From the IMG/VR virus record IMGVR_UViG_3300022555_000017, positions 1 through 64,000 of that record: a DNA stretch of 64,000 bases. The stretch is one strand, 5' to 3'. The notes under the pieces are model-generated. The model searched no databases. It saw nothing but the letters and a program-made list of their open reading frames with translations, and was not told the origin of the DNA. Shown one piece after another: positions 2,598 through 25,472 of the stretch (its first letter is position 1; each line of letters opens with the position of its first letter). The translations under genes and the position numbers were made by a program. Origin of the DNA: a virus (lineage: Duplodnaviria > Heunggongvirae > Uroviricota > Caudoviricetes).

Positions 2598-2822
2598 CTA
2601 TATTCTATCTATGTGTGAGCACCAACCAGGATCATATGATCCTGTGCTTACATAGTAATGATAACATGGTCTTTTCACGTTCCAGTCACAGTTATGTGCA
2701 TTACATGGGCGTTTTATTATCCAATCTTTAAATATATTACTGTGAACATCTTGTAGGCTAAAACCATATTCAGCGTTTTGTATGTTTGTAAGTTTTTCTA
2801 AAAAGTTTGTATCGTCTATCAT
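2598..2822 (-). CDS. Cys-rich small paralog family, member 1 (short, 74 aa)
   Basis: Shares the RPCYHYY...GWC...DR motif with 2819-3112, 3815-4108 and 4105-4398. Confidence 0.5.
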   Translation of the reverse strand: MIDDTNFLEKLTNIQNAEYGFSLQDVHSNIFKDWIIKRPCNAHNCDWNVKRPCYHYYVSTGSYDPGWCSHIDRI

Positions 2823-3112
2823 AATGGTTTCTCAAATTCCTCTAAGATGTTTATTATACATATATTTTTAGGCTTAAATCTTTCTTTAAATCCGCACCAG
2901 CCCTTTGTACTATTAACAGAAAGTCTTATATAATGTTGAAAACATGGTCTACCATTTGCAAATGAGCAATAAGATTTTTCAGGATTTCCACATTCAGATT
3001 TTATAAACCATTCATCATACTCACCTTCATTATTTGTAAATGTATACCCTTCTTTTATCATCTGTTCTAAAGTTTTATAGTTGTCACCCATTTGTTCTTG
3101 TTGGCTTATCAT
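2819..3112 (-). CDS. Cys-rich small paralog family, member 2 (97 aa)
   Basis: GYTF...C...C...RPCFQHYI...KGWCGFKERFKPK; ATGA overlap with both neighbours. Confidence 0.55.
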   Translation of the reverse strand: MISQQEQMGDNYKTLEQMIKEGYTFTNNEGEYDEWFIKSECGNPEKSYCSFANGRPCFQHYIRLSVNSTKGWCGFKERFKPKNICIINILEEFEKPL

Positions 3113-3387
3113 ATTATGCTAAATTCCTTTAAAATAGAATATACATTTATTTCTGGTTTCTTAAATCTATCACTTATTCCACAATAACATGCTGGTTCGC
3201 GTTTTCCATCGACTAATATTTTCCAACCCATGCAATCTGTTTGGTGATGCTGAAGAAAACATCGTGCACTACATGGGCTTTCTATATCTATAGACCAGTT
3301 ATCTTTATCACAATAAGTATATCCGGCATTAATATATTGCGTTAATAATTTAAAGTTATCTTCATATTGCTTTTGAATCATATGCAA
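3109..3387 (-). CDS. Cys-rich small paralog family, member 3 (92 aa, divergent)
   Basis: GYTY...C..C...CMGW...CYCGISDRFKKPE. Confidence 0.5.
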   Translation of the reverse strand: MHMIQKQYEDNFKLLTQYINAGYTYCDKDNWSIDIESPCSARCFLQHHQTDCMGWKILVDGKREPACYCGISDRFKKPEINVYSILKEFSII

Positions 3388-3418
3388 ATTCTTCTATAAC
3401 TATATATTTTTTATTTTT

Positions 3419-3643
3419 TTACACTTTTCCATATTCATACCTTTTAACTTCAGTCCATTTAGCTTTAACTGGTGGATGTAACAAAGTATATATAGCATCT
3501 TCTGCTTCTTTTAGAGTTTCAAAAATATATACATCACCTGATAGTTTTTCATAATTTCGCCAGTCCTCAAAAGTTATTGAATTATCGGAATACTTATATT
3601 GTATCATATATTTTCCTTCTTTTTCTAATATTCTATATGTCAT
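3419..3643 (-). CDS. Small protein, family B; paralog of 4909-5139
   Basis: Shares the RILE..Y.IQ...W......TLKEA.DA....P.K.KWT.V pattern with 4909-5139. Confidence 0.45.
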   Translation of the reverse strand: MTYRILEKEGKYMIQYKYSDNSITFEDWRNYEKLSGDVYIFETLKEAEDAIYTLLHPPVKAKWTEVKRYEYGKV

Positions 3644-3818
3644 TATGGTTTCTAAATGCCTCCAATAGTCTTATTACAAATTGATTTTTATATTCATCTG
3701 TGCCTGTTATAACTACCTGTATTTCTATAACTTTTACTAGTTCATGTGTTGTATTCCATCCATTGCCTATTAGTTTATCATTAATCTCACATTTTAGTTC
3801 TTTTATTGTATTACTCAT
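3633..3818 (-). CDS. Hypothetical protein (61 aa)
   Basis: ORF within the operon-like array, overlapping its neighbours. Confidence 0.35.
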   Translation of the reverse strand: MSNTIKELKCEINDKLIGNGWNTTHELVKVIEIQVVITGTDEYKNQFVIRLLEAFRNHNDI

Positions 3819-4108
3819 AGCTTATTAAACTCTCCTTGTATATCTAAGTCTATTTTAGATTCAGGCTTTTTGAATCTGTCTACATATGCACACCAGCCCA
3901 TATCTCTTTGTACATCATTTATACAGTTATAGTAACATGGTCTGATTCTATTCCAACTACATTCTCTGCCTTTTAAATCACATGAGGCTTTTATAGTCCA
4001 TTCATCTATTTTATAATCATCACAATAATCATCAAGTCTAAATTCATATCCTTCATTGTGTAGTTTTAGAAGTTTTATGTAGTTTGCGTCTTTTATTATT
4101 TCATTCAT
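3815..4108 (-). CDS. Cys-rich small paralog family, member 4 (97 aa)
   Basis: GYEF...C...C...RPCYYNCI...MGWCAYVDRFKKPE. Confidence 0.55.
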   Translation of the reverse strand: MNEIIKDANYIKLLKLHNEGYEFRLDDYCDDYKIDEWTIKASCDLKGRECSWNRIRPCYYNCINDVQRDMGWCAYVDRFKKPESKIDLDIQGEFNKL

Positions 4109-4398
4109 AGTTCTACATTAAACTCCTTTAGTATATTAAAGTCTACATATCCTTTTGGCCTTATAAATCTGTCTTTAAATCCGCACCAACCTTTTACATC
4201 ATCTGTAGGTACAAATATGTAATATTTATAGCATGATCTGCCGTTTGCGAAGGCACATATAGATCCATCATCATTATCACACTCATATTTTATAGACCAT
4301 GATTCTAATATATCTTTATCAGCTGTATTATATTTGAATCCATTAGCCATCATTTGCTTTAATATGTCTAAGTTTTTTATTTGCTCTGGGCTTTTCAT
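4105..4398 (-). CDS. Cys-rich small paralog family, member 5 (97 aa)
   Basis: GFKY...C...C...RSCYKYYI...KGWCGFKDRFIRPK. Confidence 0.55.
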   Translation of the reverse strand: MKSPEQIKNLDILKQMMANGFKYNTADKDILESWSIKYECDNDDGSICAFANGRSCYKYYIFVPTDDVKGWCGFKDRFIRPKGYVDFNILKEFNVEL

Positions 4399-4640
4399 AT
4401 TGTTCTAAACAGTTCCCTTTCTATATTTGAAAATCTTATACAATCGTTAGGCTTGAATCTGTCTGTGAATGAGCACTTGCGATCATCTGTAAATATTTTA
4501 GACATAATCTTATAGTGATAACATTGATCATTGCTTGAGCAATAGCATATTGATTGTCTATCTGTCACATACCATGTCGAATCATCATTAAATGTATAGC
4601 CATCTTTCATCATTTGTTGTAACTTTTCTATGTATGTCAT
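4395..4640 (-). CDS. Cys-rich small paralog family, member 6 (81 aa, divergent)
   Basis: GYTF...CYC...CYHYKI...CSFTDRFKPND. Confidence 0.45.
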   Translation of the reverse strand: MTYIEKLQQMMKDGYTFNDDSTWYVTDRQSICYCSSNDQCYHYKIMSKIFTDDRKCSFTDRFKPNDCIRFSNIERELFRTI

Positions 4641-4642
4641 TT

Positions 4643-4909
4643 CTATAATGTAAACAGTTCCTTATCCAATACTAATGTCTTTATACATTTAGGTTCTTTG
4701 AATGAACTGTGATATGAACATTGTGCTTCACCCCTAGATTCTGGAATGATTGAGTGTCTATAACATTGTGATTCATTACAATGACTAGTTAAACAATATT
4801 TTATTGTTGCTTCTTCATCAATATGCCATGAATCATCACCCATAAACGTATAGCCATCTTTTTTACGTCCATCTAAAATTCTTCTATTAAAATCTTCAGA
4901 TGTTACCAT
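4643..4909 (-). CDS. Cys-rich small paralog family, member 7 (88 aa, divergent)
   Basis: GYTF...C..HC...CYRHSI...CSYHSSFKEPK. Confidence 0.45.
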   Translation of the reverse strand: MVTSEDFNRRILDGRKKDGYTFMGDDSWHIDEEATIKYCLTSHCNESQCYRHSIIPESRGEAQCSYHSSFKEPKCIKTLVLDKELFTL

Positions 4910-6418: not shown

Positions 6419-6691
6419 TTACTTATCTCCTATACTTTTTATTTCATTATAACACACACATTTCAAAATGTAAACATAAACACATAGAAGGATTTTATAT
6501 ATGTTAGGGGTGAAAGATAAGTCAATCAAACCATAGTCTAAAGTTCTGTGTCTGTAAGGTAAAATAGTAGTCATTTTATCATATAGAATAAGAGAAATAC
6601 AACAGTTTTTATTAGAAATGTATAGAATCAAAATATACAATTCATATGAAATAGTATAAATAATAATATATAATTTTAAGGAGTATATTAG

Positions 6692-8098
6692 ATGTCACGA
6701 TTGGATAACTATTTGATTGAAAAGATTTCTAAAATAGAGTATAATGATATTCTGAATGATAAGTCTGTTGTAATAGGAGCGGAATTTGAGTTCTATCAGA
6801 CTAGTCATAAAGATATGATTGGTTCTGGCAATAATGATGAAGATTGGGCTGATTTCTATTATTTTACAGAGCAAATGACAAAGTATGAAGCTGATATGGA
6901 AGATTATGAAGAAGCTGAAATGGCGTATGGAAATTATCAAAGTGAATATGATGATTGGGTAGAAGCAGGTAAAACATATGAAGAGCCAGAAGAACCAGAT
7001 GCGCCGAATAAGCCAGAGCCACCCGAAATACCAGAATATGTATTAAATGTTGAGAATACAAGAGAAATAAATAATATGATAGCGAGAGGTTATATACCTG
7101 ATCCTACTTATTATACAAATATGGAAAATGATAACCAAGAAGTAATAAACAGAATTGAATCTGAAGTAGGTGATTTGATAAGTGATACTGATAACTGGGA
7201 GTTTAAAGGCGATTCATCATTAGAAACAGAAGGTATATCAAGTCTTGGTATAGAGATTGCTACATCACCAATGACATTAGCTGAGTTTCTTGATGTAGTA
7301 CCTAAAGTATTTGATTATATAGATTATACTGATGATACTTGTGGATTTCATGTGTCTATTAGTTTTGAAGGCATGAACTTAAAGGATGATTTTGATTCAT
7401 TTAAGATAGCCTTATTCATGGAAGAAGAATATGTATATAAGTATTTTAAGTCCAGAAAGGGCAATCAGTATGCTAAATCAGCATTTAGTGATGTTATTAA
7501 AAAGGGAAACTTCAAGCCTGATATACTAAAAAATCTTATAGATAAGAAGAAGGCTAACAGATCAATAACAAGTAGTCACTACATGGGTATAAACATAGAA
7601 AATATAAGTGAATATGACACAGACAGTAGAGTAGAGTTTAGATACTTAGGCAATAAGGACTATCATAAGAAATGGCCTGAGATTAAGAATATCATTGTAA
7701 GATATGTATACTTTATGAAGTTAGCTTGTGATCCTAACTATAAAAAGAAAGAATACTTAACAAAGATACAGAGAATGATAAACAAGATAGAGTTTGTAAG
7801 ATTAGGCTCATTTATGGATGGTATTAAATCAATAATAGATGGCGGTAAATTTATAGATTGGAAGATAGATCAAATCAATAGTATGCTTGAAGGAGAGGGT
7901 GTAGCAAAAGATTTAGCTGAGAAGTATTTTAGTGATTTTGAATATGATACACTTCAAGATTATAATAGTGAAATGCTAAACGCATATCTTACAAAGGCGT
8001 ATAGAAAAATGCAACAAGATTATAAAATGATTGGTTCATCAATTAAACTAACAAGTCGTGAAAAAACTTTAATAGATGCATATGTACTAGGAGTGTAA
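6692..8098 (+). CDS. Large hypothetical protein, paralog A; possible glutamine-synthetase-like amidoligase fold (inference)
   Basis: taaggag RBS. Motifs VVIGAEFEF, EIATSP, CGFHVSIS and VEFRYLG..KKWPEI are shared with 8103-9377; acidic low-complexity insert. Confidence 0.5.
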   Translation: MSRLDNYLIEKISKIEYNDILNDKSVVIGAEFEFYQTSHKDMIGSGNNDEDWADFYYFTEQMTKYEADMEDYEEAEMAYGNYQSEYDDWVEAGKTYEEPEEPDAPNKPEPPEIPEYVLNVENTREINNMIARGYIPDPTYYTNMENDNQEVINRIESEVGDLISDTDNWEFKGDSSLETEGISSLGIEIATSPMTLAEFLDVVPKVFDYIDYTDDTCGFHVSISFEGMNLKDDFDSFKIALFMEEEYVYKYFKSRKGNQYAKSAFSDVIKKGNFKPDILKNLIDKKKANRSITSSHYMGINIENISEYDTDSRVEFRYLGNKDYHKKWPEIKNIIVRYVYFMKLACDPNYKKKEYLTKIQRMINKIEFVRLGSFMDGIKSIIDGGKFIDWKIDQINSMLEGEGVAKDLAEKYFSDFEYDTLQDYNSEMLNAYLTKAYRKMQQDYKMIGSSIKLTSREKTLIDAYVLGV

Positions 8099-8102
8099 GA
8101 TA

Positions 8103-9377
8103 ATGATACTATTAGAAAAGATAAGTAAGCAAGAGTTTGATGACGCACTTAAAAATCCAAGAATACGCATCGGAACGGAGTTTGAATTCATGGTGCCGTC
8201 ATTTATAGAAGCAAATGATGAAAAAATCAAATCAACTGAGAGTAGACAAGAACTTGAAGGTGAACTATCACAATATGATGAGGACTTAAATGTATGGGCT
8301 GAAGCTGGAGAAGTAGGGCCACCGCCAAAAATACCGCAAATGATTAAAGACCTTGATCCAACCCTGCAAGATGGTGATGAAATAGATGCTGAAGATTTTG
8401 AAGAGTTCTTTGCAGGTGCTAAACAAGACAAGGATGCATTATTTAAATCTCTAGTTAAAAACAATCTTAAAATGGATGAGTTCATGCCATCCAGCCAGTA
8501 TTGGGTTACAACAAACGAAAAGGGTAAGAAGGCAGATAAATGGGTGGTAAAGCCTGATGGTAGCCTTGGTATAGGTGGAGTTGAAGTTGTTACACCAGTA
8601 ATGCCATTGGCTGATTTCATGGATATAGTACCTAAGTTCTTTAGTCACATTGATAAGTATGGTGATACAAATGATTATTGTGGATTTCATATTGGCCTAA
8701 GTATAGATGGTATTGGTGATTTGTCTAAAGTGTTGGATGTTATCAAGTTAGCCCTATTTACTGATGAGGGATATATCTATAAGGCATTTAAGGAAAGAGA
8801 ATATAATAAGTATGCCAAGTCTGTACATTCAGCAATCAAATCAGGTGAAATAGTTGGTGGTGCATTAGAGCAGGTAATAGACATTGGTAAAGTGCAGAAA
8901 GAATACTCAAATGATCACATGATGGCCATTAATATAGAGCACTTAACAAACTATGGTAAGAATAAGAATAAATATATAGAGTTCAGATACTTAGGAGCAG
9001 GTAAGTATCATCAGAAATGGCCAGAGATAAGACGAATACTTGCAATGTATTCATACGCCTTGAGTATGGCTTGTGACCCTGAGTATAGAAAGAAAGAATA
9101 CTTGTTGAGATTGAATAGAGTTATAAACAAAGTTGAGTTATTTACAAATCTATATAACTATGTTATAATGAACAATGATGTAGGAAGGTCAGAGAAGGAA
9201 ATTGCTGATTTATTACGAATAGATATAAATAAAGATGAGTACTTAAAAAAGGCTAAGACACTAGCCAAATTTGTGAATCTATCTCCTATGGACATTGCTG
9301 ATATGTTAGAGAATAATGCCAATATGAATAAACAAACAGGTGAAGAGATAATGAATCTATACAAGGAGATAAGATAA
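8103..9377 (+). CDS. Large hypothetical protein, paralog B of 6692-8098; same amidoligase-like motifs
   Basis: IRIGTEFEF, EVVTPV, CGFHIGLS, IEFRYLG..QKWPEI, MACDPEYRKKEYL. Confidence 0.5.
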   Translation: MILLEKISKQEFDDALKNPRIRIGTEFEFMVPSFIEANDEKIKSTESRQELEGELSQYDEDLNVWAEAGEVGPPPKIPQMIKDLDPTLQDGDEIDAEDFEEFFAGAKQDKDALFKSLVKNNLKMDEFMPSSQYWVTTNEKGKKADKWVVKPDGSLGIGGVEVVTPVMPLADFMDIVPKFFSHIDKYGDTNDYCGFHIGLSIDGIGDLSKVLDVIKLALFTDEGYIYKAFKEREYNKYAKSVHSAIKSGEIVGGALEQVIDIGKVQKEYSNDHMMAINIEHLTNYGKNKNKYIEFRYLGAGKYHQKWPEIRRILAMYSYALSMACDPEYRKKEYLLRLNRVINKVELFTNLYNYVIMNNDVGRSEKEIADLLRIDINKDEYLKKAKTLAKFVNLSPMDIADMLENNANMNKQTGEEIMNLYKEIR

Positions 9378-9571
9378 TGTCAAGACTAAATAAATATATA
9401 AATGAAGAAAAGGAAAAAATATCTAAAGATGTTTCTGATGATGATAAGAAGATTGTTATAAAGATACAGAATGAAGTAGAGAATGAGAATGAAGATGAGA
9501 AATCTGGTTCAGGTGATACTGGATCATTAGAAAAGAAGATAGACAAAATACTAAAAATATTGGAGAAATAA
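9377..9571 (+). CDS. Small acidic/lysine-rich hypothetical protein
   Basis: ATGTCA overlap with the upstream stop. Confidence 0.35.
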   Translation: MSRLNKYINEEKEKISKDVSDDDKKIVIKIQNEVENENEDEKSGSGDTGSLEKKIDKILKILEK

Positions 9572-9718: not shown

Positions 9719-10600
9719 ATGATAGAACTTAAATATAGTTTAAATGATATTAAGGAATATGTTGAAAGTTTTAGATATAAACTTTTATCTACTGAATATA
9801 TCGGTATTATGTCAAAATTAAAATTAAAATGCCCTGAAGGCCACATATTTGAAACAAGATATAATAATTTTAAAAACATTAATAGTAGATGCCCTGAATG
9901 TAAGGGTAATAGAAAACATACATTAGAAAAAGTTAAAGAACATATTGAAAGTTTTGATTATAAACTATTATCAACAGAATATAGAAATGCCGATACAAAA
10001 CTTGAATTAAAATGTCCTTCTGGCCATATTTTTGATATAAAGTATCGTAGCTTTCAACAAGGGCAAAGATGTATGGAATGCTCAGGTAAAAGAAAACATA
10101 CATTAGATGAAGTTAAAGAATATATTGGGGTGTATGATTATAAAGTTTTATCTACTGAATATATTAATTCATATACAAAATTAAAGTTGCAATGCCCTGA
10201 AGGTCATATATTTAATATGATGTATCGTAATTTTCAACAAGGAGTTAGATGTCCTGAATGTTGTAATAAAAAAGGATGGTCTAAACCAGAAAAGGAAATA
10301 GCAAAATATGTTAAAACAATATATTCCGACAAAGTTATAGAAAATGATAGAACACAAATTAAAAACTATTGGACAAGTGCAGGTTTAGAATTAGATATAT
10401 GGCTACCTGAAGTAAAAAAAGCAATAGAGTTTAATGGTTCTTATTGGCATTCAAATAACAAAACAAAATGGTATGATGAAATGAAGAAAAGGCAGTGTAT
10501 GAAAAATGAAATTGATTTATTAGTTATAAATGAACAAGATTGGTATGATGATAAAATGTGCCAACTAAATAAAATAAATGTTTTTATAGGAGAAATGTAA
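9719..10600 (+). CDS. Zn-ribbon-repeat (x3) plus Vsr/DUF559-like nuclease family protein; putative homing endonuclease
   Basis: Three ~45-aa repeats (Y(I/V)ESF.YKLLSTEY...L.CP.GH.F...FQQG.RC.EC) and a C-terminal PEKEIA...ENDRTQ...LELDIWLPE...AIEFNGSYWH...QDWYDDK domain. Confidence 0.7.
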   Translation: MIELKYSLNDIKEYVESFRYKLLSTEYIGIMSKLKLKCPEGHIFETRYNNFKNINSRCPECKGNRKHTLEKVKEHIESFDYKLLSTEYRNADTKLELKCPSGHIFDIKYRSFQQGQRCMECSGKRKHTLDEVKEYIGVYDYKVLSTEYINSYTKLKLQCPEGHIFNMMYRNFQQGVRCPECCNKKGWSKPEKEIAKYVKTIYSDKVIENDRTQIKNYWTSAGLELDIWLPEVKKAIEFNGSYWHSNNKTKWYDEMKKRQCMKNEIDLLVINEQDWYDDKMCQLNKINVFIGEM

Positions 10601-10601: not shown

Positions 10602-10859
10602 ATGAGTAGATGCGTGAAATGCCATGAACTAATGCCACCAGAATTAACTATGGAAATAGAAAATGATAAAAAAATGTGTATTTTTTGTAAGAGAGATACC
10701 AATGAGATTATAAATAATGGCATAAAGATTACAAGGACAGAAACGATTAAAGAATATAAAATGTTTTTAGATGAATTAAGAGGGCGTGCTGATTTACTGC
10801 GTGACTATGAATCAGGTAAGATAGACTTAAAGAACATATCAAGGATCATAAAACCATAA
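10602..10859 (+). CDS. Small zinc-ribbon protein (CVKCH...CIFCKRD)
   Basis: Two Cys pairs; TAAAATG coupling to the upstream gene. Confidence 0.4.
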   Translation: MSRCVKCHELMPPELTMEIENDKKMCIFCKRDTNEIINNGIKITRTETIKEYKMFLDELRGRADLLRDYESGKIDLKNISRIIKP

Positions 10860-11254: not shown

Positions 11255-11767
11255 ATGGAAAATGTTATTTTATTAAATGGTGACTTTACAATTTTGGGTT
11301 TCATAGGTTGGAAGAAAGCCATTAAGTTGATTGTAAAGAAGAGAGTTGAAGTCATTAGTTATTCTGAGCGTATTATTCATAATTTTGAAAATACTATTAG
11401 AATGGCGATTCCTGCGGTTTTGCGATTACTTAAAGTAGTTCGTAAGCTATTTGGTGTTAGAGTGCCATTAAGCAAAAGAAATGTTCTGATACGCGATGGC
11501 CATAAGTGTGCATACTGCGGTAAGGTAAATAAGAAAGGTATGACCATTGATCATGTATTGCCAAAATCAAAGGGTGGCAAAACATCATTTGATAACTTGG
11601 TAACTGCTTGTGTGCATTGTAACAACAAGAAGGACAACAAAACTTGCAAAGAAGCAGGAATATATCCAAAATTTAAGCCTTTCACACCAACTATAAATCA
11701 ATTCCTACAAATTCAATTAGAAGGTAATGGAATAGTTAAAACATTAAAAAATTTAGGTATTTTATAA
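11255..11767 (+). CDS. HNH endonuclease (free-standing)
   Basis: CAYCGK...DHVLPKSKGG...NLVTACVHCNNKK HNH motif. Confidence 0.75.
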   Translation: MENVILLNGDFTILGFIGWKKAIKLIVKKRVEVISYSERIIHNFENTIRMAIPAVLRLLKVVRKLFGVRVPLSKRNVLIRDGHKCAYCGKVNKKGMTIDHVLPKSKGGKTSFDNLVTACVHCNNKKDNKTCKEAGIYPKFKPFTPTINQFLQIQLEGNGIVKTLKNLGIL

Positions 11768-11769: not shown

Positions 11770-12285
11770 ATGCCTAAAAGGCTAGATTATATAGATGCTA
11801 AAGAATATATTGAGAATTTTAGTTATAAATTATTATCTACTGAATATATTAATGCTCTTTCTAAATTAAAATTACAATGCCCTGAAGGCCATACATTTAA
11901 AATGCATTATAGTCACTTTAAAAGAGGTATACGATGCCCTGAATGTGCATCAGCATTAAAATGGTCTAAGCCAGAAAAGGAAATAGCTGAATATATTAAA
12001 AAACATTATATAGGTGAAGTAATTGAAAATGATAGAACACAAATAACAAACCATAAAACTGGTAAGAACCTTGAACTTGATGTATGGCTACCAGAGTTGT
12101 CTAAAGCCATTGAATATAACGGACTTCATTGGCATAATAATGATAAAGTAAAGTGTCGTGATAATATAAAAAGAAAGCAATGTGTTGAAAAGAAAATAGA
12201 GTTACTTATAATAGAAGATAAAGATTGGTATGATGATAAAGTATGTTGTCTAAATAAAATAAATGAACTAATAGGTATTTTATAG
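11770..12285 (+). CDS. Zn-ribbon-repeat (x1) plus Vsr/DUF559-like nuclease family protein
   Basis: A single N-terminal repeat plus the conserved C-terminal nuclease domain. Confidence 0.7.
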   Translation: MPKRLDYIDAKEYIENFSYKLLSTEYINALSKLKLQCPEGHTFKMHYSHFKRGIRCPECASALKWSKPEKEIAEYIKKHYIGEVIENDRTQITNHKTGKNLELDVWLPELSKAIEYNGLHWHNNDKVKCRDNIKRKQCVEKKIELLIIEDKDWYDDKVCCLNKINELIGIL

Positions 12286-12774: not shown

Positions 12775-13668
12775 ATGTGGTATAAATATAGGATGAGTAA
12801 AAAATATACAATAGAAGAAATAAAACTATACATTGAAAGTTTTGGATATACATTATTATCTACTGAATATAATAAAGCACTTTCTAAATTAGACCTTCAA
12901 TGTCCTGAAGGTCATTTATTTAAAATGAGATATAATAATTTTAAGAATCAAAGTCAACGATGCTCTATTTGTTTTGGTACACCTAAGAAAACAATAGAAG
13001 AAGTTAGAAATTATATTGAAAGTTTTAATTATAACCTTCTTTCTACTGTGTATATAAATAATAAAGAAAAATTAGTATTGCAATGCCCTGAAGGTCATAT
13101 AATAAAAATACGATTGGATAGTTTTAGTCATGGAACTAGATGTTCAATATGTTCTGGTAATGATAAAAATTCTATTGAAAAAATTAAAAAGCATATAGAA
13201 AGTTTTGATTATAAACTATTATCAACAGAGTATATAAATAATAAATCAAAAATAAAATTACAATGTAGTAAAAATCATACATATCAAGCTTCTTATCATA
13301 GATTTCAACAAGGTGATAGATGCCCTTTATGTGCAAATAGTGAAGGTAAATCAAAACCCGAAAAAGAAATTGTTGAACATATTAAAATAAATTACTATAA
13401 AGATATAATAGAAAATGATAGAACACAAGTTAAAAACTTTTGGTCTAATCGTAATTTGGAGCTGGATATATTTTTACCTGATATATCTAAAGCAATAGAA
13501 TTTAATGGTATATATTGGCATAAAAATAATAATGTAAAATGGAAAGATGAAATGAAAAGAAAACAATGTATTCAAAAAGGTATTGAGTTATTAGTTATAC
13601 AAGAGCAAGATTGGTATAATGATAAGTTATGTTGTTTAAATAAAATAAATGAGTTAATAGGTGCTTAA
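12775..13668 (+). CDS. Zn-ribbon-repeat (x3) plus Vsr/DUF559-like nuclease family protein (probable start ATG 12793)
   Basis: Family motifs; stop overlaps the next gene start (TAATGAATGA). Confidence 0.7.
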   Translation: MWYKYRMSKKYTIEEIKLYIESFGYTLLSTEYNKALSKLDLQCPEGHLFKMRYNNFKNQSQRCSICFGTPKKTIEEVRNYIESFNYNLLSTVYINNKEKLVLQCPEGHIIKIRLDSFSHGTRCSICSGNDKNSIEKIKKHIESFDYKLLSTEYINNKSKIKLQCSKNHTYQASYHRFQQGDRCPLCANSEGKSKPEKEIVEHIKINYYKDIIENDRTQVKNFWSNRNLELDIFLPDISKAIEFNGIYWHKNNNVKWKDEMKRKQCIQKGIELLVIQEQDWYNDKLCCLNKINELIGA

Positions 13669-14801
13669 TGAATGAATTACAAGTTGTTGAAAGAGGTATT
13701 TTTAATTTATTTTCGTTTTTAGGTGATAATAGTGGATGCGGACATATAAGAGTTATATTTCCTTACTTATATATACCACATTTGAGAGCTGAAGGATATA
13801 AGTTTGGTGCACAGTACTCTAGTTATTTTATTGATGATCTTAATTTTTACAAACAATTCACACTAGTACAGTTTCAAAGGTCAGCAACAAAAGATCAGTT
13901 GAACATGATTAAGCATTTCAAAAATCAGGTTCAGAAGTTTCATAAAATTGCTATAGTTTATGAAATAGATGATTTACTTACGGAAATTCCAGAATGGAAT
14001 TTTGCTTGTGCCTATTACAAAGAAAATCTTAAACACATTGAAGAAATGATGCAGATAGTTGATGGCATAACAGTATCAACAGAATATCTTAAAAATATAT
14101 ATACAAAATATAATTCAAAGATTGCCGTTGTTCCTAATCGTTTATGTAAGATGCTATGGGGTGAGATTGAGCCAGCACATGAACGAAGAGAGCCTAATAA
14201 GAAAATTCGTATTGGGTATCACGGTTCCGGTAATCATTTCTGTGATAGTAGGAGTAAAGAGTATAAAGATGGTATTCGCGGTGGTGATTTCAATGATAAA
14301 CTATTAAACTATATAAGAAAAACAGTCGATGATGTGCAGTGGGTATTTTCTGGTGCTATACCACCTGAGTTAAATGATGTTAGAGATAAGATAGAGTATC
14401 ATAACTGGGTAAATGTTTTAGAGTTTCCAAGTAAGGTTAAGTCACATAAACTTGATATATGCTTAGCACCATTAATAGATAACATATTCAATAGGAGCAA
14501 AAGCAATATAAAGTTATTAGAATCAGTAGCACTAGGTATACCAATAGTTTGTTCTGATCTTGAGTCATATAAGGAATCGTATCTTAAAACAAATGACGAT
14601 GATGAGTTTATAGGATATATTGAGAAATTGGTTGCTGATCAGGATTTTAGAAGGTTGACATTTGAGAAAAACTATGATACAATAGGTTTACAAGATAAGT
14701 TATGGTGGGAAGGTAGAGACAGAAATTATAGTAATGTCTATAAGTATGTTGATTCTTATCTATCATTATTTGGCAAGAGGTTAAAAGATGGCATTTATTG
14801 A
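13668..14801 (+). CDS. Putative GT-B fold glycosyltransferase (GT4-like)
   Basis: C-terminal LESVALGIPIVCSD resembles the E..G.PVV.S signature of GT-B glycosyltransferases; otherwise unassigned. Confidence 0.4.
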   Translation: MNELQVVERGIFNLFSFLGDNSGCGHIRVIFPYLYIPHLRAEGYKFGAQYSSYFIDDLNFYKQFTLVQFQRSATKDQLNMIKHFKNQVQKFHKIAIVYEIDDLLTEIPEWNFACAYYKENLKHIEEMMQIVDGITVSTEYLKNIYTKYNSKIAVVPNRLCKMLWGEIEPAHERREPNKKIRIGYHGSGNHFCDSRSKEYKDGIRGGDFNDKLLNYIRKTVDDVQWVFSGAIPPELNDVRDKIEYHNWVNVLEFPSKVKSHKLDICLAPLIDNIFNRSKSNIKLLESVALGIPIVCSDLESYKESYLKTNDDDEFIGYIEKLVADQDFRRLTFEKNYDTIGLQDKLWWEGRDRNYSNVYKYVDSYLSLFGKRLKDGIY

Positions 14802-15006: not shown

Positions 15007-15604
15007 TATAGAAGATATATACGTTAAGTTTAGAAAGGCGCAGAGTGTTTATAGTAATAGACCATATAAGATACCAAAAGATATATCAGCATTCCTTGAG
15101 AAGAGATTGACCGAAGTAAATCTGAAGAATATGCAGAAACTAGCAGATGCATTGAATACAAACTATAGAAATGTAGATGTTGATAGGTATTTAGAATATG
15201 GTTTTGAATTGTTTGGTAAGAATTTTTCATATATAAAATTCCTTGATCCTAGATTGATAAACTTTTACATTATGAAGGATAAGAACTTTAAGAGAGATAT
15301 GGAGTTGACCATCGCTAACATAGATAAATCTATTGCATTTGTAAAAGATTTTATGTCAGTAGGTGCAGCATCTATTTACCTGAGATATGGACAGTTGAGG
15401 GATGGCTATGATAGCATTGCTATTCATCATTTCATTAAAGGTAAGATTGATAGATATTTTCTAACATGGCTTATCTTTAAGAACTATCTGGTACTTTTAG
15501 ATGGCGATAGAGAACTTATACCATTAATAACTGAGCAGTATCGAAACTACATTTTTGAACTGAAAAAGATGGGCCTACTTGATGATATAGACAGGAGAAC
15601 ATAA
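14972..15604 (+). CDS. Hypothetical protein (210 aa)
   Basis: ORF. Confidence 0.45.
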   Translation: MKLMNVRKWMISIEDIYVKFRKAQSVYSNRPYKIPKDISAFLEKRLTEVNLKNMQKLADALNTNYRNVDVDRYLEYGFELFGKNFSYIKFLDPRLINFYIMKDKNFKRDMELTIANIDKSIAFVKDFMSVGAASIYLRYGQLRDGYDSIAIHHFIKGKIDRYFLTWLIFKNYLVLLDGDRELIPLITEQYRNYIFELKKMGLLDDIDRRT

Positions 15605-15960
15605 TGATATATACATCGCATTATAGATCGCCTAAACTTAGAAAGGATATGAATCTGATTGCTATATCATATCTTCAACCACCTGACATCATGGCTAAGT
15701 TTGATATTGGTATATATAAACCTTTATGCCCAACTAAAAAACTAGTTATGGACTATAAACATGGATTACTTACTGTACCTGAATATACAACATTATACTA
15801 TGAACAAGTATTAGAAAAGTTAGACCCTTATATTGTATGCCTAGCATTAAATGGCAATGCTGTATTGTTGTGTTGGGAAAAACCTTTTGAGTTTTGTCAT
15901 AGACATCTTGTGGCTGAGTGGTTAAATAATAATCTGAATTGTGGAGTGAGAGAACTATGA
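15604..15960 (+). CDS. Hypothetical protein (118 aa)
   Basis: ATAATGA coupling to the upstream gene. Confidence 0.45.
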   Translation: MIYTSHYRSPKLRKDMNLIAISYLQPPDIMAKFDIGIYKPLCPTKKLVMDYKHGLLTVPEYTTLYYEQVLEKLDPYIVCLALNGNAVLLCWEKPFEFCHRHLVAEWLNNNLNCGVREL

Positions 15961-16382: not shown

Positions 16383-17255
16383 ATGATTGCATTATATTGC
16401 CATAATGATATGGACGGCAAATGCTCTGGTGCTATTGCATATAGAGAACTTAGTAAGCAATACGGTATAAATGAAATACTAATGTATGTTGTTGATTATG
16501 GAGATAAATTACCTACATTTAAGGCTGAAGATAGCTTAAAGGCTGTATACATAATGGATTTTAGTTTTGAACCTGAATATATGGATTATCTGATTTCATT
16601 AGTAGGTAGAGATAATGTTATATGGATTGATCATCATATTTCAGCTATTAAAAAGTTAAATGATTATAGAGATTTGAATGGACTTAGAAGTATTATTATG
16701 TCTGGTTGTATGTTGACATTTAGATATTTTTATCCAGATAAGTTTGCTCCTATGGTTATAGAGCTGGTTGAAGATTTTGATCTGTACATTTATAGATACG
16801 GTGATTTAACTAAAGGGTTTCAAGAATGGTCTAACTATAATGATACTGAGCCAACTAATATTATTTGGGATCGGTTGCTTACATCTAACTTTGACCAACT
16901 AGAAGAACTATCACAAGAAGGTCTAAGATTTAGAGAAATTAGATTATGGAAGTTAGAGAAGGACATTGAAAGATTAGCATATATTGATGAGATTGATGGC
17001 CATAAGTGTTTGAAGATGAACCTTACACAACTGGATAGTATTTCAGATGCAGGTGATTTTGTTATAAATATATTAGGGTATGATTTATTTTGGGCATATT
17101 CTGATTTTGTAATCAATGGTAAGTTACGAAGGACAAATCAGTTACGAAGTCATGTAATTGATGTATCTAAACTTGCAGATAAATTTGGCGGGGGTGGGCA
17201 CGCTCGTGCAGCAGGGTTTCTGTCTGATATAGGAGAAAGGAAAGGTGAATGTTGA
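16383..17255 (+). CDS. DHH/DHHA1 family phosphoesterase (NrnA/RecJ-like)
   Basis: CHNDMDGKCSGA (H.D.DG..S), IWIDHH (DHH) and GGGGHARAAGF (DHHA1 GGGH motif). Confidence 0.65.
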   Translation: MIALYCHNDMDGKCSGAIAYRELSKQYGINEILMYVVDYGDKLPTFKAEDSLKAVYIMDFSFEPEYMDYLISLVGRDNVIWIDHHISAIKKLNDYRDLNGLRSIIMSGCMLTFRYFYPDKFAPMVIELVEDFDLYIYRYGDLTKGFQEWSNYNDTEPTNIIWDRLLTSNFDQLEELSQEGLRFREIRLWKLEKDIERLAYIDEIDGHKCLKMNLTQLDSISDAGDFVINILGYDLFWAYSDFVINGKLRRTNQLRSHVIDVSKLADKFGGGGHARAAGFLSDIGERKGEC

Positions 17256-17823
17256 GGATAAAATAGACAAAATATTAGTTGAAGCATCACTATCAAGGAT
17301 ATGGCAGCACATTGAGAAAGGCAATTCTTTAGGTGTTATTACTGCTTTTCGGTCGAATGATCCAGACAATCTTAAAAAAAATAAAAAACTACAATCTGAA
17401 ATAAATGTAGCTGGATTTGGGTATTTTCCAATGAATGGTGTATACATAGAAGATTTTGGTAGTGATGAGCCAAAAAAGGTTGAAGAGAGTTCATTCTTTG
17501 TTATTAGTACACATCCAGAAAAATTAAGAGATTTTCTTATTAAAATGGGTAAGAAATATGAACAGGACAGCGTATTGTTTATGGATAATTCGGTAGAAGA
17601 TAAAGTTGCTGTTCTGATAGGTACAAAAGCTGATGCATGGCCTGGTTTGGGTGTTGTTCATACATTAGGCAAATGGCATCCTAATAAGATAAGAGATTTT
17701 TATTCCAAGTTAAAGGGAAGTAAATCATTTGTATTTGAAGATATAGATATAAATATGGATTTACCTACTGGTTTAATGGCTAGATCAGTAAAAAATAAAA
17801 TTGATTCTCAAGGTTTACAATAG
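17245..17823 (+). CDS. Hypothetical protein (192 aa), translationally coupled to the DHH phosphoesterase
   Basis: ORF overlapping the upstream stop. Confidence 0.45.
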   Translation: MNVEDKIDKILVEASLSRIWQHIEKGNSLGVITAFRSNDPDNLKKNKKLQSEINVAGFGYFPMNGVYIEDFGSDEPKKVEESSFFVISTHPEKLRDFLIKMGKKYEQDSVLFMDNSVEDKVAVLIGTKADAWPGLGVVHTLGKWHPNKIRDFYSKLKGSKSFVFEDIDINMDLPTGLMARSVKNKIDSQGLQ

Positions 17824-17847: not shown

Positions 17848-18735
17848 ATGAAAAAATTAAATTATATTGATGTTAAAAATAATATAGAAAATTTTGGATA
17901 TAAGTTATTATCTGAAAAATATATAAATGCTTTGACTAAACTAGAAATGCAATGTCCTGAAGGTCACGATTTTGAGATAAAATATAATAATTTTCAACAA
18001 GGTCAAAGATGCTCTATTTGTTTTGGTACGCCTAAGAAAATATTAAATGAAATTAAAGAGTATATAGAAAGTTTTAATTATAAATTACTTTCTACTGAAT
18101 ATAAAGATAATAGAACTAAACTAGAATTACAATGTTCTGAAGGCCATATATTTAAAATGGCATATGGTAGTTTTAAAAATCAAAATTATAGATGCCCGGA
18201 ATGTGCTGGTAATAGAAAATTTATAATAGAAGATATTAAAGAATATATTGAAAGTTTTGACTATAAACTTTTATCAACTGAATATGTAAATATATTTTCC
18301 AAGTTAAAAATACAATGTTTAAAAGGTCATATATACGCTGTAACGTATAATAATTTTAAGAATCATAATAGAAGATGCCCAGAATGTTCAAATAGTAAAA
18401 TGTTTTCTAAACCAGAAAAGGAAATTGCTGAATATGTTAAAGAGAATTATACTGGTGATGTTGTAGAAAATGACAGAACACAAATAGTAAATTATTGGAC
18501 AGGTGTTGGATTAGAACTTGATGTTTGGATGCCAGAAGCAAGAAAAGCAATAGAATTTAATGGTTCTTATTGGCATAATAATGAAAATGCTAAATGGCAT
18601 GATGAAATAAAAAAGAAACAATGCATACAAAAGAAAATAGATTTATTAGTTATACAAGAGCAGGATTGGTATAATGATAAGGTATGTTGTTTAAATAAAA
18701 TAAATAATTTAGTTTACAATACGGTTGGAATATAG
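17848..18735 (+). CDS. Zn-ribbon-repeat (x3) plus Vsr/DUF559-like nuclease family protein
   Basis: Family motifs. Confidence 0.7.
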   Translation: MKKLNYIDVKNNIENFGYKLLSEKYINALTKLEMQCPEGHDFEIKYNNFQQGQRCSICFGTPKKILNEIKEYIESFNYKLLSTEYKDNRTKLELQCSEGHIFKMAYGSFKNQNYRCPECAGNRKFIIEDIKEYIESFDYKLLSTEYVNIFSKLKIQCLKGHIYAVTYNNFKNHNRRCPECSNSKMFSKPEKEIAEYVKENYTGDVVENDRTQIVNYWTGVGLELDVWMPEARKAIEFNGSYWHNNENAKWHDEIKKKQCIQKKIDLLVIQEQDWYNDKVCCLNKINNLVYNTVGI

Positions 18736-18785: not shown

Positions 18786-19703
18786 ATGTGCGCTTCAAAA
18801 TGGGTAGACAAGAATTTATTTGAGAATTTTGCAACAGAAAAGGAACAAGAAAAAGATAGGAGTGCTAATAAGCGATCAGATGTCGTGTGGCAAACTCCTG
18901 AAGCCGGAACTGAAGATAAACCCAAAATCTACGAAGGTCGTTTCCTACCAGATTTGAGAGGTAAATTCACTAAATCATATTTCTATCATATGTTTCAGAT
19001 GGGAGATAAGTGGCAGTTTGTCCTTTGTCCCAAGACATATGATTTTGATAACTTCTGCCCTTTCTGTTCATTGGTAAATAAACTATACATGGGTAGTAAA
19101 GCTGACAAAGACATTGCTCCCAAATATAAAAGAAAGGCAAGGAATGTATCTAATTGGTTTGTTGTTGATGATCCGAGAGATGCTGCAATTCAAGATGAAA
19201 CAAAGAAATCTACTGGTAAAGTAAAGTTGTATGAATACCCTGATAAGGTAGATGCTAAACTTAAAACTGAAATCCTTGATAAGAAAGAAGGATTGAGAGA
19301 GGCTATCTTTGATCCGTCCTCAGAAGGTCATAACTTTATTTTGAGAATAAAGCAGACAAAGAAAGATGCAAAAGGCAAGGCATATCCAGATTATGCAGAA
19401 TCAGCATTTTCTCGTAAGTCCTCAGCATTAGGTACTGATGCTGAAATTAAGAAAATTATGGAAAGCCGTTTTTCCATTGAGGATTACATTAAGACTCTTG
19501 AAATCAAACAGGAAGATATGATTAGGATTTTGAAGTCTGAAATGTTATGGGAACTGGTCAATGATGATGCTAACAAGTATTGGTCGGTAGATAGAGAAAA
19601 AGTGCCTGAATCAGTTGAAGAATCTGATGTACCTGATTTTAATGATGACATTGGTGAAGAAGAAACTGATGCTGATATTATGGCAAAGTTAGAAACAATA
19701 TAA
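18786..19703 (+). CDS. T4 gp32-like single-stranded DNA-binding protein
   Basis: RFLPDLRGKF, GDKWQFVLCPKT...DNFCPFC align to T4 gp32 (IRFLPS..NGKWYIETCSST..DSPVQVC); acidic C-terminal tail. Confidence 0.7.
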   Translation: MCASKWVDKNLFENFATEKEQEKDRSANKRSDVVWQTPEAGTEDKPKIYEGRFLPDLRGKFTKSYFYHMFQMGDKWQFVLCPKTYDFDNFCPFCSLVNKLYMGSKADKDIAPKYKRKARNVSNWFVVDDPRDAAIQDETKKSTGKVKLYEYPDKVDAKLKTEILDKKEGLREAIFDPSSEGHNFILRIKQTKKDAKGKAYPDYAESAFSRKSSALGTDAEIKKIMESRFSIEDYIKTLEIKQEDMIRILKSEMLWELVNDDANKYWSVDREKVPESVEESDVPDFNDDIGEEETDADIMAKLETI

Positions 19704-20679: not shown

Positions 20680-20898
20680 ATGAAAAAGATTTTTGAAAGA
20701 TTCCGTAACTGGTTAAACAAGTATATTAATCTTAAATTCATAACTATTACAGCTAAAATTATTATCGTTGGTTTATTATTGAGTACGGGATATTCATTAC
20801 TAAACACCGATAGTAATTTAGGTGTAGGAGTAGGAATAAGTATATTGGTTTTGGTATTGGCATGGATCGTTGCTAAAATATCTAACATCGTATTTTAA
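20680..20898 (+). CDS. Small membrane protein (2 TM helices)
   Basis: Hydrophobic segments; RBS gaaaggaag. Confidence 0.45.
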   Translation: MKKIFERFRNWLNKYINLKFITITAKIIIVGLLLSTGYSLLNTDSNLGVGVGISILVLVLAWIVAKISNIVF

Positions 20899-20913
20899 GA
20901 AAAGGAGAATAAA

Positions 20914-21777
20914 ATGTTTAAGAAACTGTTAGGTGGTATTGTTGGTGGTTTGTTACTTTTTAGTTTAGTTGGCTGTGGTTGTCAAAAAATTGAGCCAGGT
21001 CATGTTGGTATTCAAGTTAATAATCTTGGTTCAGATCGTGGTGTTCAAAGTTATACAATGAAAACAGGTCTTGTATTTTATATGCCTATTATGTCTACTA
21101 TTTTTGAATACCCAACATATATGCAAACTGCTAGTTGGACACACGACAAAAATGAAGGTAGTGAAAATAATGAAGAAATTACTTTCAATACTAAAGAAGG
21201 GTTGGTTGTAAGTGGTGATGTTTCTTTGGGTTATCAACTTATTGCATCAAAGGTTCCTAATTTTTATGTAACATTCAGGTCTGATGATCTTAATGGTTTT
21301 ACACATGGATTTTTGAGAAATATTGCAAGAGATGCCTTCAATGAAGTTGGTGCTAAATATTCTGTAGAAGATGTATATGGTGCCAAAAAAGAAGATTTCC
21401 TAAAAGAAGTAAAGGCATATGTAAATAGTCAAGTAGTTAAATTCGGTGTACAAATTGAACAGTTTGGTTTCATTGGGGCATTGAGGATTCCTGCTGGTGT
21501 AAAAGGTGCATTAGATGCTAAGATTCAGGCAACACAGGATGCTATCAGAGCAGAGAATCAGGTAAGACAGGCAAAAGCTGAAGCTGAAAAGAGAATTGCT
21601 GAAGCTGTAGGTATTTCAAAGGCAAATGAATTGATTACAACTTCCATTACAGATAAGTTAATTGAATGGAGAAGGTTGGAAGTTACTCAGCAAGCTGTCG
21701 CAAAATGGAATGGTGCAAGACCAATGGTTGAAGGTAATGGTTCTGGTCTATTATTAAATATTAATCCTAACAAGTAA
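20914..21777 (+). CDS. SPFH/band-7 (prohibitin/stomatin-like) domain lipoprotein
   Basis: Signal peptide with lipobox LVGC; SPFH-like core followed by a coiled-coil AENQVRQAKAEAEKRIAEA tail. Confidence 0.55.
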   Translation: MFKKLLGGIVGGLLLFSLVGCGCQKIEPGHVGIQVNNLGSDRGVQSYTMKTGLVFYMPIMSTIFEYPTYMQTASWTHDKNEGSENNEEITFNTKEGLVVSGDVSLGYQLIASKVPNFYVTFRSDDLNGFTHGFLRNIARDAFNEVGAKYSVEDVYGAKKEDFLKEVKAYVNSQVVKFGVQIEQFGFIGALRIPAGVKGALDAKIQATQDAIRAENQVRQAKAEAEKRIAEAVGISKANELITTSITDKLIEWRRLEVTQQAVAKWNGARPMVEGNGSGLLLNINPNK

Positions 21778-22657: not shown

Positions 22658-22924
22658 ATGAGATTAGAACAATATATAAAAGAGGCTGAAGGTAAAGAGG
22701 AACTTAAAAAATGGGGTCAGACTTTCGGCAAGCATCATGGTGTTGGCCCTACAGAGCATGGCTTTTTTGATATATGTGTAGAACATATGAAGGGAAAAAT
22801 TGATAACCCTGAAGCCTTTTGTGCGAGGGTAAAAGATTCTGCTTACGGGAGTACGATGTGGAGGGGCAAAGATAAATCCAAAAAGGAAATAGAAAAAGAT
22901 GTAAAGGAGCATCCCTTAAAATAA
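22658..22924 (+). CDS. Hypothetical protein (88 aa)
   Basis: RBS agaggtg. Confidence 0.4.
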   Translation: MRLEQYIKEAEGKEELKKWGQTFGKHHGVGPTEHGFFDICVEHMKGKIDNPEAFCARVKDSAYGSTMWRGKDKSKKEIEKDVKEHPLK

Positions 22925-23961: not shown

Positions 23962-24933
23962 ATGAGATTAGATAACTTTGTAAATGAAAGAGCACCTGTT
24001 ACTGATAGCATATTTGATGAAGAAATCAAAAATAATGATGAAGCATTAAAGATGCGCTTTGAAATGATTATACTGAAACTAAGAAGAGAGTGTTCTGAAA
24101 TCATAAGAGAATATAAAAAAAATAAGGCATATTTATATAGAGGTTACAACTCAAATCAGTTATATCTTACTAAAACACCAAGAATTGATAGGCGACCAAT
24201 GGATATGCCTAAAGAGGTACATGATTTATTTGATAATGCATTTAAAAAAGAATTTGGTTGGAAGGTTAGAAGCGAAGGTGCATTTGTAACTACACAGCAT
24301 CGTAAAGCTAATGGATATGGCGATGTTTATTTATTTTTTCCTGTGAATAGTTATAAGTATGTTTATAGTCCAACTGTTCATGATTTATTTGTAGATTATA
24401 TGCAAAATGGCATACTTAGAATGACAAATGACGATTATAGAAATGGGAAAATCGGTGAAGAATACTATGATAAATACAGGGAACATTATAATAAAAATGG
24501 TTACTGGACTACAAAAAATATAGAATTTAATACAAAGTTTTTTGAAGATTTTCATGGTAGTGGCGCAGACTTTAAGGCTATAGTAGATCATATGAAAGAG
24601 TTATATGGTAAGAAGATTGTATATAATATAGTAAACCAGATACTTTTCATGACTTATATAGATGGCGATAGTAAAAAGAAAATAAATTTTGATTGGACAC
24701 CTAATGTTAAAGAAGATGATTATTTCAATATGAGGGTAGAGGAAATAGATAAGCAAATTGATGGCGAAATAGATAAATATATGAATGGATATAAAGATTA
24801 TGGCTTATTTAATAACATACATAGTTTAGATAATCAAGAGATAAGCTTTAAGTGTGATAAGTTTTATATAGTTAGATTAGAAGAAATCATAGAACAATAT
24901 AAAGATTTGGATAATTTTATCAAGGAACTATAG
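23962..24933 (+). CDS. Hypothetical protein (323 aa)
   Basis: Long ORF. Confidence 0.5.
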   Translation: MRLDNFVNERAPVTDSIFDEEIKNNDEALKMRFEMIILKLRRECSEIIREYKKNKAYLYRGYNSNQLYLTKTPRIDRRPMDMPKEVHDLFDNAFKKEFGWKVRSEGAFVTTQHRKANGYGDVYLFFPVNSYKYVYSPTVHDLFVDYMQNGILRMTNDDYRNGKIGEEYYDKYREHYNKNGYWTTKNIEFNTKFFEDFHGSGADFKAIVDHMKELYGKKIVYNIVNQILFMTYIDGDSKKKINFDWTPNVKEDDYFNMRVEEIDKQIDGEIDKYMNGYKDYGLFNNIHSLDNQEISFKCDKFYIVRLEEIIEQYKDLDNFIKEL

Positions 24934-25224: not shown

Positions 25225-25472
25225 AGAGGATGCATCAATGACAAAACTACAAGAGTATTTAATTGAAATGCCTAGCATTGGTAGTAAATCTTCAGGTGAC
25301 GGATTGCAAAAAGAAGATAAAAGTAAGCTAGATAAAGTTGGAAAACAAATTGCAAAAGAATTAGAAGTAATGTTCAAAAAAAGAAATTAATAAGATAGAA
25401 GATGATATAGAAGATACAAAATATCATTATTTATTTTCCGCCACTATAAAACAGGCAGATATAAGTTATAAA

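Follow-up and report, generated by a model that had tools for sequence, protein, structure and literature searches.

We analyzed two adjacent genes, here called A1 and A2, in a 64,000-nucleotide (nt) stretch of DNA from a virus of the Caudoviricetes (IMG/VR record IMGVR_UViG_3300022555_000017, positions 1 to 64,000); the whole stretch is hereafter called the window. We are highly confident that both proteins belong to the amidoligase enzyme family. As to their role, we propose, with about even confidence, that A1 and A2 are carboxylate-amine ligases of the glutamine synthetase (GS) fold which would be packaged into the phage head by means of an N-terminal tag, trimmed, ejected, and used to modify a host molecule. 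The proposal draws on the family assignment, on a tag that resembles the capsid-targeting sequence (CTS) of phage T4 and recurs on unrelated proteins, and on the presence of one remote homolog in purified virions. The positions of all features are collected in Table 1.

A pair of paralogous Amidoligase_2 proteins

The initial annotation, made from the sequence alone, described an adjacent pair of paralogs of 468 and 424 amino acids (aa). The coordinates were confirmed: both genes are on the + strand, A1 comes first, and a gap of 4 nt separates them. BLASTP aligned the two proteins over ~385 aa with 34% identity (E 4e-63), a likeness far above chance which makes them true paralogs. Every motif proposed at that stage was found in A1 and A2. 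The motif of the first strand reads VIGAEFEF in A1 and RIGTEFEF in A2, so that the (V/I)IG originally written for both has to be corrected for A2, where R precedes IG. The other counterparts (A1/A2) are EIATSP/EVVTPV, CGFHVSIS/CGFHIGLS, VEFRYLG/IEFRYLG, a KWPEI common to both, LACDPNY/MACDPEY and WVEAG/WAEAG. The last one, presented as a conserved W(V/A)EAG, is indeed present in A1 and A2; across the wider family the Trp alone is kept.

PF12224 (Amidoligase_2) is the best Pfam match of both proteins, in agreement with the GS-like amidoligase assignment made initially. A2 scores 26.7 bits, over the gathering cutoff of 22 bits, and A1 by itself 17.5 bits, under it. Precomputed PF12224 matches are carried by 45 of the 50 database homologs of A2. 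Among the matches listed for A1 they are carried by 15 of 25 homologs, including the closest one beyond two near-identical orthologs. Profile searches thus did not miss the GS-like family, as the initial annotation had allowed they might. In PHROGs, A1 and A2 match an unnamed family, and A1 also matches phrog_7469 ("amidoligase enzyme"). The best BFVD matches are phage proteins entitled "Amidoligase enzyme", among them a protein of Agrobacterium phage Atu_ph07, and the predicted fold of A1 and A2 is the GS-like catalytic fold of PF12224.

Metagenomic homologs returned by database searches with A1 and A2 number in the dozens; they have 400-450 aa, and remoter ones 550-740 aa. A profile of the family finds 7227 clusters (50% identity) at E up to 1e-3 and 1886 at E up to 1e-30. 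By tblastn we obtained only remote homologs, in Atu_ph07, RsoM2USA and huge metagenomic phages. PDB sequences searched with A1, A2 and the family profile gave nothing meaningful, and neither protein had a match in PADLOC or NCBIfam.

Residue conservation was counted over alignments of 59-65 homologs. In A2 numbering the invariant positions are G24, E26, E28, D152, E161, S200, K215, F229, R232, E293, R295 and G298, and H196 is shared by no fewer than 90% of homologs. In A1 numbering they are G29, E31, E33, D174, E188, G218, H220, S224, D235, K238, F252, R255, E315, R317 and G320. A1 and A2 keep the full E-x-E / E / H / E-x-R set and are therefore expected to possess a metal- and ATP-dependent active site of the GS type; judging by sequence conservation, these residues probably correspond to the GS metal site. 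Chance similarity and inactive structural paralogs were considered and rejected, both being ruled out by the E-values and by the invariant catalytic residues.

The acidic low-complexity inserts reported at first are strongly acidic in both proteins and follow the first strand in each. "Low-complexity" is only partly right: the A2 insert is modelled as a helical subdomain, with a block-mean predicted local distance difference test score (pLDDT) of 81-98 over residues 31-150, and the A1 insert as a long helix spanning residues 49-91, beyond which a Pro/Glu-rich linker is poorly predicted. Since the A2 insert folds confidently and the A1 insert has a long helix, the inserts are not simply low-complexity. 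The isoelectric points (pI) of the whole proteins are 4.6 (A1) and 5.1 (A2). Altogether, the clade adds three elements to the catalytic core: the tag at the N-terminus, the acidic helical insert, which occupies 100-130 aa behind strand 1, and a helical extension of 80-100 aa at the C-terminus.

In a neighbour-joining tree the A2-like proteins form a single clade, and the A1-like proteins (A1, P0051-53, P0034-36 and the copy of the related contig L003) a basal grade. The order A1-like then A2-like is found in four lineages: the window, L007 (P0035 and the next open reading frame, ORF), L003/L004, and a 5.8-kb contig with P0034 and P0008. L001, L005 and L006 keep the A2-like gene alone. The pair is an old tandem duplication whose order was kept in several lineages, and its retention suggests that the two proteins cooperate or have two related substrates. 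In P0075 (914 aa, from the library of representatives) an A1-like and an A2-like domain share one ORF; an I-S-E motif marks their junction, where the second domain begins. Two other representatives combine Amidoligase_2 domains with further functions. P0083 adds an SLT lytic transglycosylase and LysM, a combination typical of ejected wall-piercing virion proteins and a hint in that direction; P0080 adds a GGACT/AIG2 gamma-glutamyl cyclotransferase, which hints at gamma-glutamyl-amine chemistry. Both combinations would agree with, but do not establish, the two substrate specificities or the peptide or cell-wall amidation that the initial annotation suggested.

In L003 (8665-10004) and L004 (4235-5616) we observed that the A1-like gene is split by a single poly-A frameshift, identical in two independent assemblies (ENA, JGI). 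A pseudogene, an error in homopolymer sequencing or programmed slippage could each account for this. In the L004 copy, moreover, the insert contains additional KEWENQV repeats.

An N-terminal tag similar to the T4 capsid-targeting sequence

The CTS of T4 internal proteins is MKTYQEFIAE (PMC8442874). According to PMC9026906, mutations of its residues 4 and 7 bear on targeting and those of residues 8 and 10 on processing, the T4 prohead protease gp21 cleaves after L/I-x-E, and Alt has a 7-residue N-terminal propeptide removed. A1 fits all four functional positions, with Leu4, Tyr7, Leu8 and Glu10, and at least 90% of homologs retain its E10 and K11. This tag had escaped the initial annotation.

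We described the tag as a segment of ~10 aa with a hydrophobic residue at position 4, an aromatic one at 7, an aliphatic one at 8 and Glu at 10. This four-position pattern is present at 5 of the 107 ORF N-termini of the window, against 0.16 (shuffles) to 0.29 (internal frequency) expected; the corresponding Poisson P of ~1e-5 is optimistic, the pattern being chosen post hoc. Looser versions were seen at window ORFs 23806, 25473 and 28816. The tag-bearing N-termini of the window differ by synonymous codons and their upstream DNA is unrelated, which argues that selection acts on the tag peptide. The 64-aa ORF that overlaps the end of A2 and starts with such a tag may encode a small packaged protein.

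The tag was also observed on orthologous non-amidoligase proteins in related contigs (L003 7818-8645, L003 20829-21137 and L006 16503-17366). Within the family it is carried by most of 125 representatives starting with Met, in its strict form by 39 of them. Examples are MKTYKQFLIE in P0063 and MTKFKEYIIE in P0054, and many have forms of the type M[GS][IL][KR][DE][IV]LL.E. Orthologs of A2 bear the full tag, e.g. MRLTNYLVEK and MKVRDYLVLEK. In several representatives spacer residues come between the tag and the EKVSK helix opening the domain, which shows the tag to be a separate module. In the structure models the pLDDT is below 50 for residues 1-8 of A1, and the mean over the first 10 residues is 40 in A1 and 62 in A2.

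A homolog in the virion of phage Atu_ph07

The sole relative with experimental data comes from Agrobacterium phage Atu_ph07. This homolog (AUZ94978.1, UniProt A0A2L0UZM1, 500 aa) shows 31% identity over 218 aa (E 7e-16; Foldseek E 1.3e-13) and is encoded two genes from the portal gene. Flanking gene lengths and mass (57.93 kDa calculated, 57.94 kDa tabulated) identify it as gp196. In the electrospray ionization tandem mass spectrometry (ESI-MS/MS) proteome of purified virions, gp196 is represented by 14 unique peptides with 30.2% coverage, and the portal protein by 20 peptides with 43% coverage (PMC6102473, Table S5). The 58-kDa gp196 peaks in gel band 2, among proteins of 77-137 kDa (PMC6102473, Table S5), and so migrates well above its calculated mass; this could be due either to acidity or to covalent attachment.

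The homologs of window ORF 23962 in this phage, gp62 and the eight-gene paralog array gp58-65 (mapped by exact masses), are all in the virion proteome as well. The N-termini of gp58-65 are MRWHQLIE, MKWHQLTE, MRWDQLTE or MRLFQLLE. That of gp196, which has the same catalytic motifs as A1 and A2, is MRWQDISSKKLTE (MRWQD...KKLTE). In each phage, then, the amidoligase shares its N-terminal signature with other virion proteins of the same phage, as expected of a targeting and cleavage signal in co-evolution with the scaffold and the protease. As the Atu_ph07 starts differ from those of the window, the tag varies by phage across unrelated proteins. The homolog of phage RsoM2USA, ORF26, is not listed in a virion analysis of ~10 gel bands only, a result uninformative either way.

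ORF 23962-24933 itself contains "YRG ... VTT" motifs faintly recalling ADP-ribosyltransferases. On account of "YRG ... TT" motifs, this ORF and L003 7818-8645 were considered as Alt-like ADP-ribosyltransferases; the idea was dropped, as they have no functional Pfam or PHROGs match and are barely alike, and as two homologs only were found. No functional domain was detected in ORF 23962.

Proposed role and alternatives

We infer packaging in this phage, ejection and ligase chemistry of A1 and A2 along the following lines. Both proteins would be made late and enter the prohead core via the tag, and a prohead protease of the gp21 type would trim them after L/I-x-E. They would then stay in the filled head and leave it with the DNA into the host. 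There, they would spend host ATP to amidate or ligate a host protein side chain, a peptide or a metabolite before phage gene expression. This timing may be likened to that of T4 Alt, which ADP-ribosylates host RNA polymerase. A mechanism can be proposed from the related cases of GS, gamma-glutamylcysteine ligase and PafA: divalent metals bound by the E-x-E, Glu, His and E-x-R residues would position ATP and the carboxylate; to judge from the superfamily, an acyl-phosphate would form and attack by the amine would give the amide. Somewhat more tentatively, the same may apply to the whole clade, thousands of clusters from T4-like and jumbo phages, which would be virion-delivered ATP-dependent amide ligases modifying a host molecule in the first seconds, A1 and A2 acting as a two-enzyme or heteromeric unit.

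Several observations weigh against delivery by the virion. A1 and A2 lie amid early and replication genes (gp32, DHH, HNH), outside any head module. They are acidic, and T4 internal proteins are basic. The window A2 starts with a shortened MILLE in place of the full tag; the P value given for the tag is optimistic because the regular expression was written after the sequences had been viewed; and the N-terminus could owe its conservation to a structural role in this clade. The virion data come from a single remote homolog, gp196, with 31% identity over half the protein. The multi-domain "fusions" P0075, P0080 and P0083 could be read-through artefacts of gene calling. Our searches found no demonstration of ligase activity for any Amidoligase_2 protein and no PDB relative by sequence.

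Late expression is also in question. TATAAATA, which we take to be the T4 late-promoter consensus, lies upstream of A1 and of the ORF heading the other cluster of tagged genes. It occurs 24 times in the window for 27.6 expected, i.e. with no enrichment, and is weak late-promoter evidence; upstream of A1, moreover, a sigma-70-like match overlaps it. A scan for sigma-70 promoters and terminators around A1 and A2 was uninformative. Finally, the prohead protease gene is not in the window, and its presence in the phage is assumed from membership of the T4 superfamily. This status is deduced from the presence of gp32, T4 RNase H, a RecA/UvsX-like protein and a DnaG-type primase. According to PMC9026906, gp21 is a core gene of T4-related phages.

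Some of these points serve the most serious alternative, which we nevertheless consider unlikely: A1 and A2 would be unpackaged cytoplasmic enzymes working on a small molecule or an envelope precursor (e.g. stem-peptide amidation, gamma-glutamyl-amines), and their N-terminus would be structural. A location in a replication or early-type region, in the orientation of gp32, is what such enzymes could be expected to have, and the sigma-70-like promoter match that overlaps the upstream region and the incomplete tag of the window A2 point the same way. Relatives fused to AIG2/GGACT and to SLT and LysM (peptidoglycan-binding or -cleaving domains) likewise suit an envelope or small-molecule substrate. 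Proposals quoted in PMC10580990 see in the association of phage amidoligase and GATase a cell-wall modification against superinfection or a synthesis of secondary metabolites. In our case, however, a GATase-like peptidase or an AIG2/GGACT partner turned up neither in a Pfam scan of 46 window proteins nor among the genes called in L001-L007. A structural role in the amidoligase fold leaves unexplained a decapeptide that is present on unrelated proteins and varies by lineage, and the N-terminal residues are predicted to be disordered. Lastly, the Atu_ph07 homolog is a well-supported virion protein.

Packaged proteins might also act before ejection. Inside the assembling head, A1 and A2 could form isopeptide (Glu/Asp-Lys) links joining core, internal or capsid proteins while the prohead is permeable to ATP, or serve as acidic scaffold-like components of the core, a role that we find improbable. 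T4 prohead core proteins are acidic, and the acidic helical inserts recall them. The peak of gp196 in a gel band of much larger proteins would fit covalent attachment, but it has a trivial explanation in the anomalous migration of an acidic protein. Besides, the CTS-bearing internal proteins of T4 act post-ejection (PMC9026906).

Least credible of all is a part in post-replicative hypermodification of DNA bases, e.g. the transfer of an amino acid or polyamine onto a modified pyrimidine. In its favour, some viral contigs combine thymidine-hypermodification genes with Pfam domains of amidoligases and amidotransferases (PMC8989533). A1 and A2 also have replication and nucleotide genes in their vicinity, as well as a conserved glycosyltransferase-like protein (13668-14801), and in L007 a ThyX-like gene stands directly upstream. 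Against it, the 5-hydroxymethyldeoxyuridine (5-hmdU) DNA kinase, aGPT-Pplase and pyrimidine hydroxymethylase domains, which define such clusters according to PMC8989533, were not found among the window proteins scanned, and the virion packaging of gp196 and the N-terminal tag are ill-suited to a replication-coupled DNA-modifying enzyme.

Genomic context

The window has a G+C content of ~29% and a T4-like gene content. Megablast of 20 kb of it against cultured phages gave no match. Besides the genes of Table 1 it encodes NrdD, a DnaG-type primase, a RecA/UvsX-like protein and several HNH and PD-(D/E)XK nucleases.

The surroundings of the amidoligase are conserved in related metagenomic contigs of 30-240 kb. 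The order is a NAD-dependent DNA ligase a few kb upstream, the amidoligase, the Zn-ribbon protein and the 170-aa HNH protein, followed by the glycosyltransferase-like protein, then by DUF488 and DHH proteins and gp32. The 170-aa HNH protein has 46-60% identity between distant phages and is always just downstream of the amidoligase and the Zn-ribbon protein; it is too conserved and too syntenic to resemble a typical mobile homing endonuclease.

Table 1. Location of A1, A2 and associated features in the window
Feature	Position	Strand	Description
TATAAATA	6655..6662	+	T4-type late-promoter -10 consensus (presumed); 30 nt upstream of A1 start
Shine-Dalgarno AAGGAG	6679-6684	+	-13 to -8 from A1 start
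A1	6692..8098	+	468 aa; Amidoligase_2 / GS-fold carboxylate-amine ligase (predicted), "A1-like" paralog type
A1 residues 1-10, MSRLDNYLIE	6692..6721	+	CTS-like propeptide (putative); ends in L-x-E
A1 acidic insert	6797..7186	+	Residues 36-165; net charge -28; holds WVEAG
A2	8103..9377	+	424 aa; Amidoligase_2 / GS-fold ligase (predicted), "A2-like" paralog type
A2 acidic insert	8193..8540	+	Residues 31-146; net charge -14; holds WAEAG
64-aa ORF	9377..9571	+	Overlaps A2 stop codon; starts MSRLNKYINE; lineage-specific
Zn-ribbon protein	10602-10859		~80 aa
HNH protein	11255-11767	+	170 aa; orthologs L001 11565-12080, L003 11696-12211, L006 9626-10129
Glycosyltransferase-like protein	13668-14801		~377 aa
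gp32	18786-19703		Window gene
TATAAATA, second copy	22612-22619		39 nt upstream of ORF 22658, which heads the other cluster of tagged genes
88-aa ORF	22658..22924	+	Starts MRLEQYIKE; unrelated protein; L003 ortholog (20829-21137) starts MRLLEFLTE
323-aa ORF	23962..24933	+	Starts MRLDNFVNE; unrelated protein; Atu_ph07 homologs gp62 and array gp58-65
50-aa basic ORF	25238..25390	+	Starts MTKLQEYLIE; paralog at 25473-25709 starts MIEDKINEYLTE
T4 RNase H	31487-32365		Window gene

In the window this synteny is interrupted by copies of a ~290-aa homing-endonuclease-like gene. About nine scattered paralogs of ~170-300 aa were counted, at 9719-10600, 11770-12285, 12775-13668, 17848-18735, 22927-23805, 29664-30542, 30598-31479, 33183-33878 and 51126-52037, with a fragment at 28589-28816. 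At their N-terminus CapR/zinc-ribbon modules ("YIESFxYKLLSTEY...CPxGH") are repeated, and their C-terminal nuclease domain is similar to REase_MTES_1575/Vsr. They look like a proliferating homing-endonuclease family that breaks an otherwise conserved synteny.

Other features of the window

A sugar biosynthesis cluster resembling the nonulosonic-acid pathway extends from 37892 to 51089. It includes two GT2 glycosyltransferases, a class IV aminotransferase, a CMP-type cytidylyltransferase, two methyltransferases, NeuB and a SPASM-domain protein (possibly radical SAM). A NAD-dependent epimerase/dehydratase is encoded beyond it (62022-62990, - strand). A Ro60/TROVE and vWA protein (55265-56737, - strand) adjoins the RecA/UvsX-like gene and a large ORF (58831-61020). 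At the other end of the window, on the - strand (2318-2572 and 2598-4909), an ORF made of repeated "MNVK" units adjoins some eight paralogous genes arranged in tandem, whose products of 74-97 aa have a "GYTF" motif in common. Accessory genes encode a DUF488-N3a protein (15604-15960), a DHH/DHHA1 phosphoesterase (16383-17255), an S-adenosylmethionine (SAM)-lyase-like protein (17431-17823), an SPFH/Band 7 protein (20914-21777) and an FkbM-type methyltransferase (25891-26703).

Comparison with known systems and significance

A1 and A2 resemble Amidoligase_2 proteins in general by homology at the level of hidden Markov models, by the GS-like fold and by residues of catalytic type, and many phage members of the family are annotated "Amidoligase enzyme". 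Canonical phage versions differ in having ~250-400 aa, without the tag, acidic insert and C-terminal extension added in the A1/A2 clade. Their usual GATase-like or AIG2 partners were not found in the window, and the tandem A1-like/A2-like pairing is specific to the clade. No sequence similarity of A1 or A2 to any solved structure was detectable, including PafA/Dop, GS and gamma-glutamylcysteine ligases. Unlike GS, A1 and A2 have no N-terminal beta-grasp domain; unlike the case of PafA/Dop, no Pup-like partner was identified.

With the CTS-bearing head proteins of T4, A1 has in common a decapeptide with the same functional positions and an L/I-x-E end, and, as at the T4 internal protein (IP) loci, the tag is common to several unrelated small proteins of one genome. 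Like T4 Alt, A1 and A2 are proposed to be enzymes delivered with the DNA. Alt and the internal proteins are an ADP-ribosyltransferase or small basic proteins, whereas A1 and A2 are acidic predicted ATP-dependent amide ligases; packaging and cleavage in this phage are, in addition, presumed. Atu_ph07 gp196 is a homolog with the same catalytic motifs; it differs from A1 and A2 in being a single-copy protein of a 490-kb jumbo phage, encoded beside the portal gene, with an N-terminal consensus of its own (MRWQ...LTE).

The Amidoligase_2 family and its occurrence in phages are already known as predictions and are routinely auto-annotated. Phage and bacterial GS-like amidoligases (PF12224) were reportedly predicted by Iyer, Abhiman, Burroughs and Aravind in 2009. 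A jumbo-phage survey cites that paper solely for ATP-grasp RNA ligases (PMC7824862). Literature searches for Amidoligase_2, PF12224 and phage amidoligase returned mentions in genome annotations only, with no biochemical characterisation of any member, and no description of virion delivery for a clade of this family was found in them.

Should the proteins of this clade prove to be packaged and ejected, their target would have to be sought among molecules of the uninfected cell at the time of DNA entry, with host takeover or anti-defence as contexts. The T4 capsid-targeting mechanism would then be known from remote T4-like phages that are uncultured as well, and for a new enzyme chemistry, which would be a second enzymatic chemistry of injected effectors beside the ADP-ribosylation by T4 Alt. 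Since the family profile reaches 7227 clusters, any function found would apply broadly.

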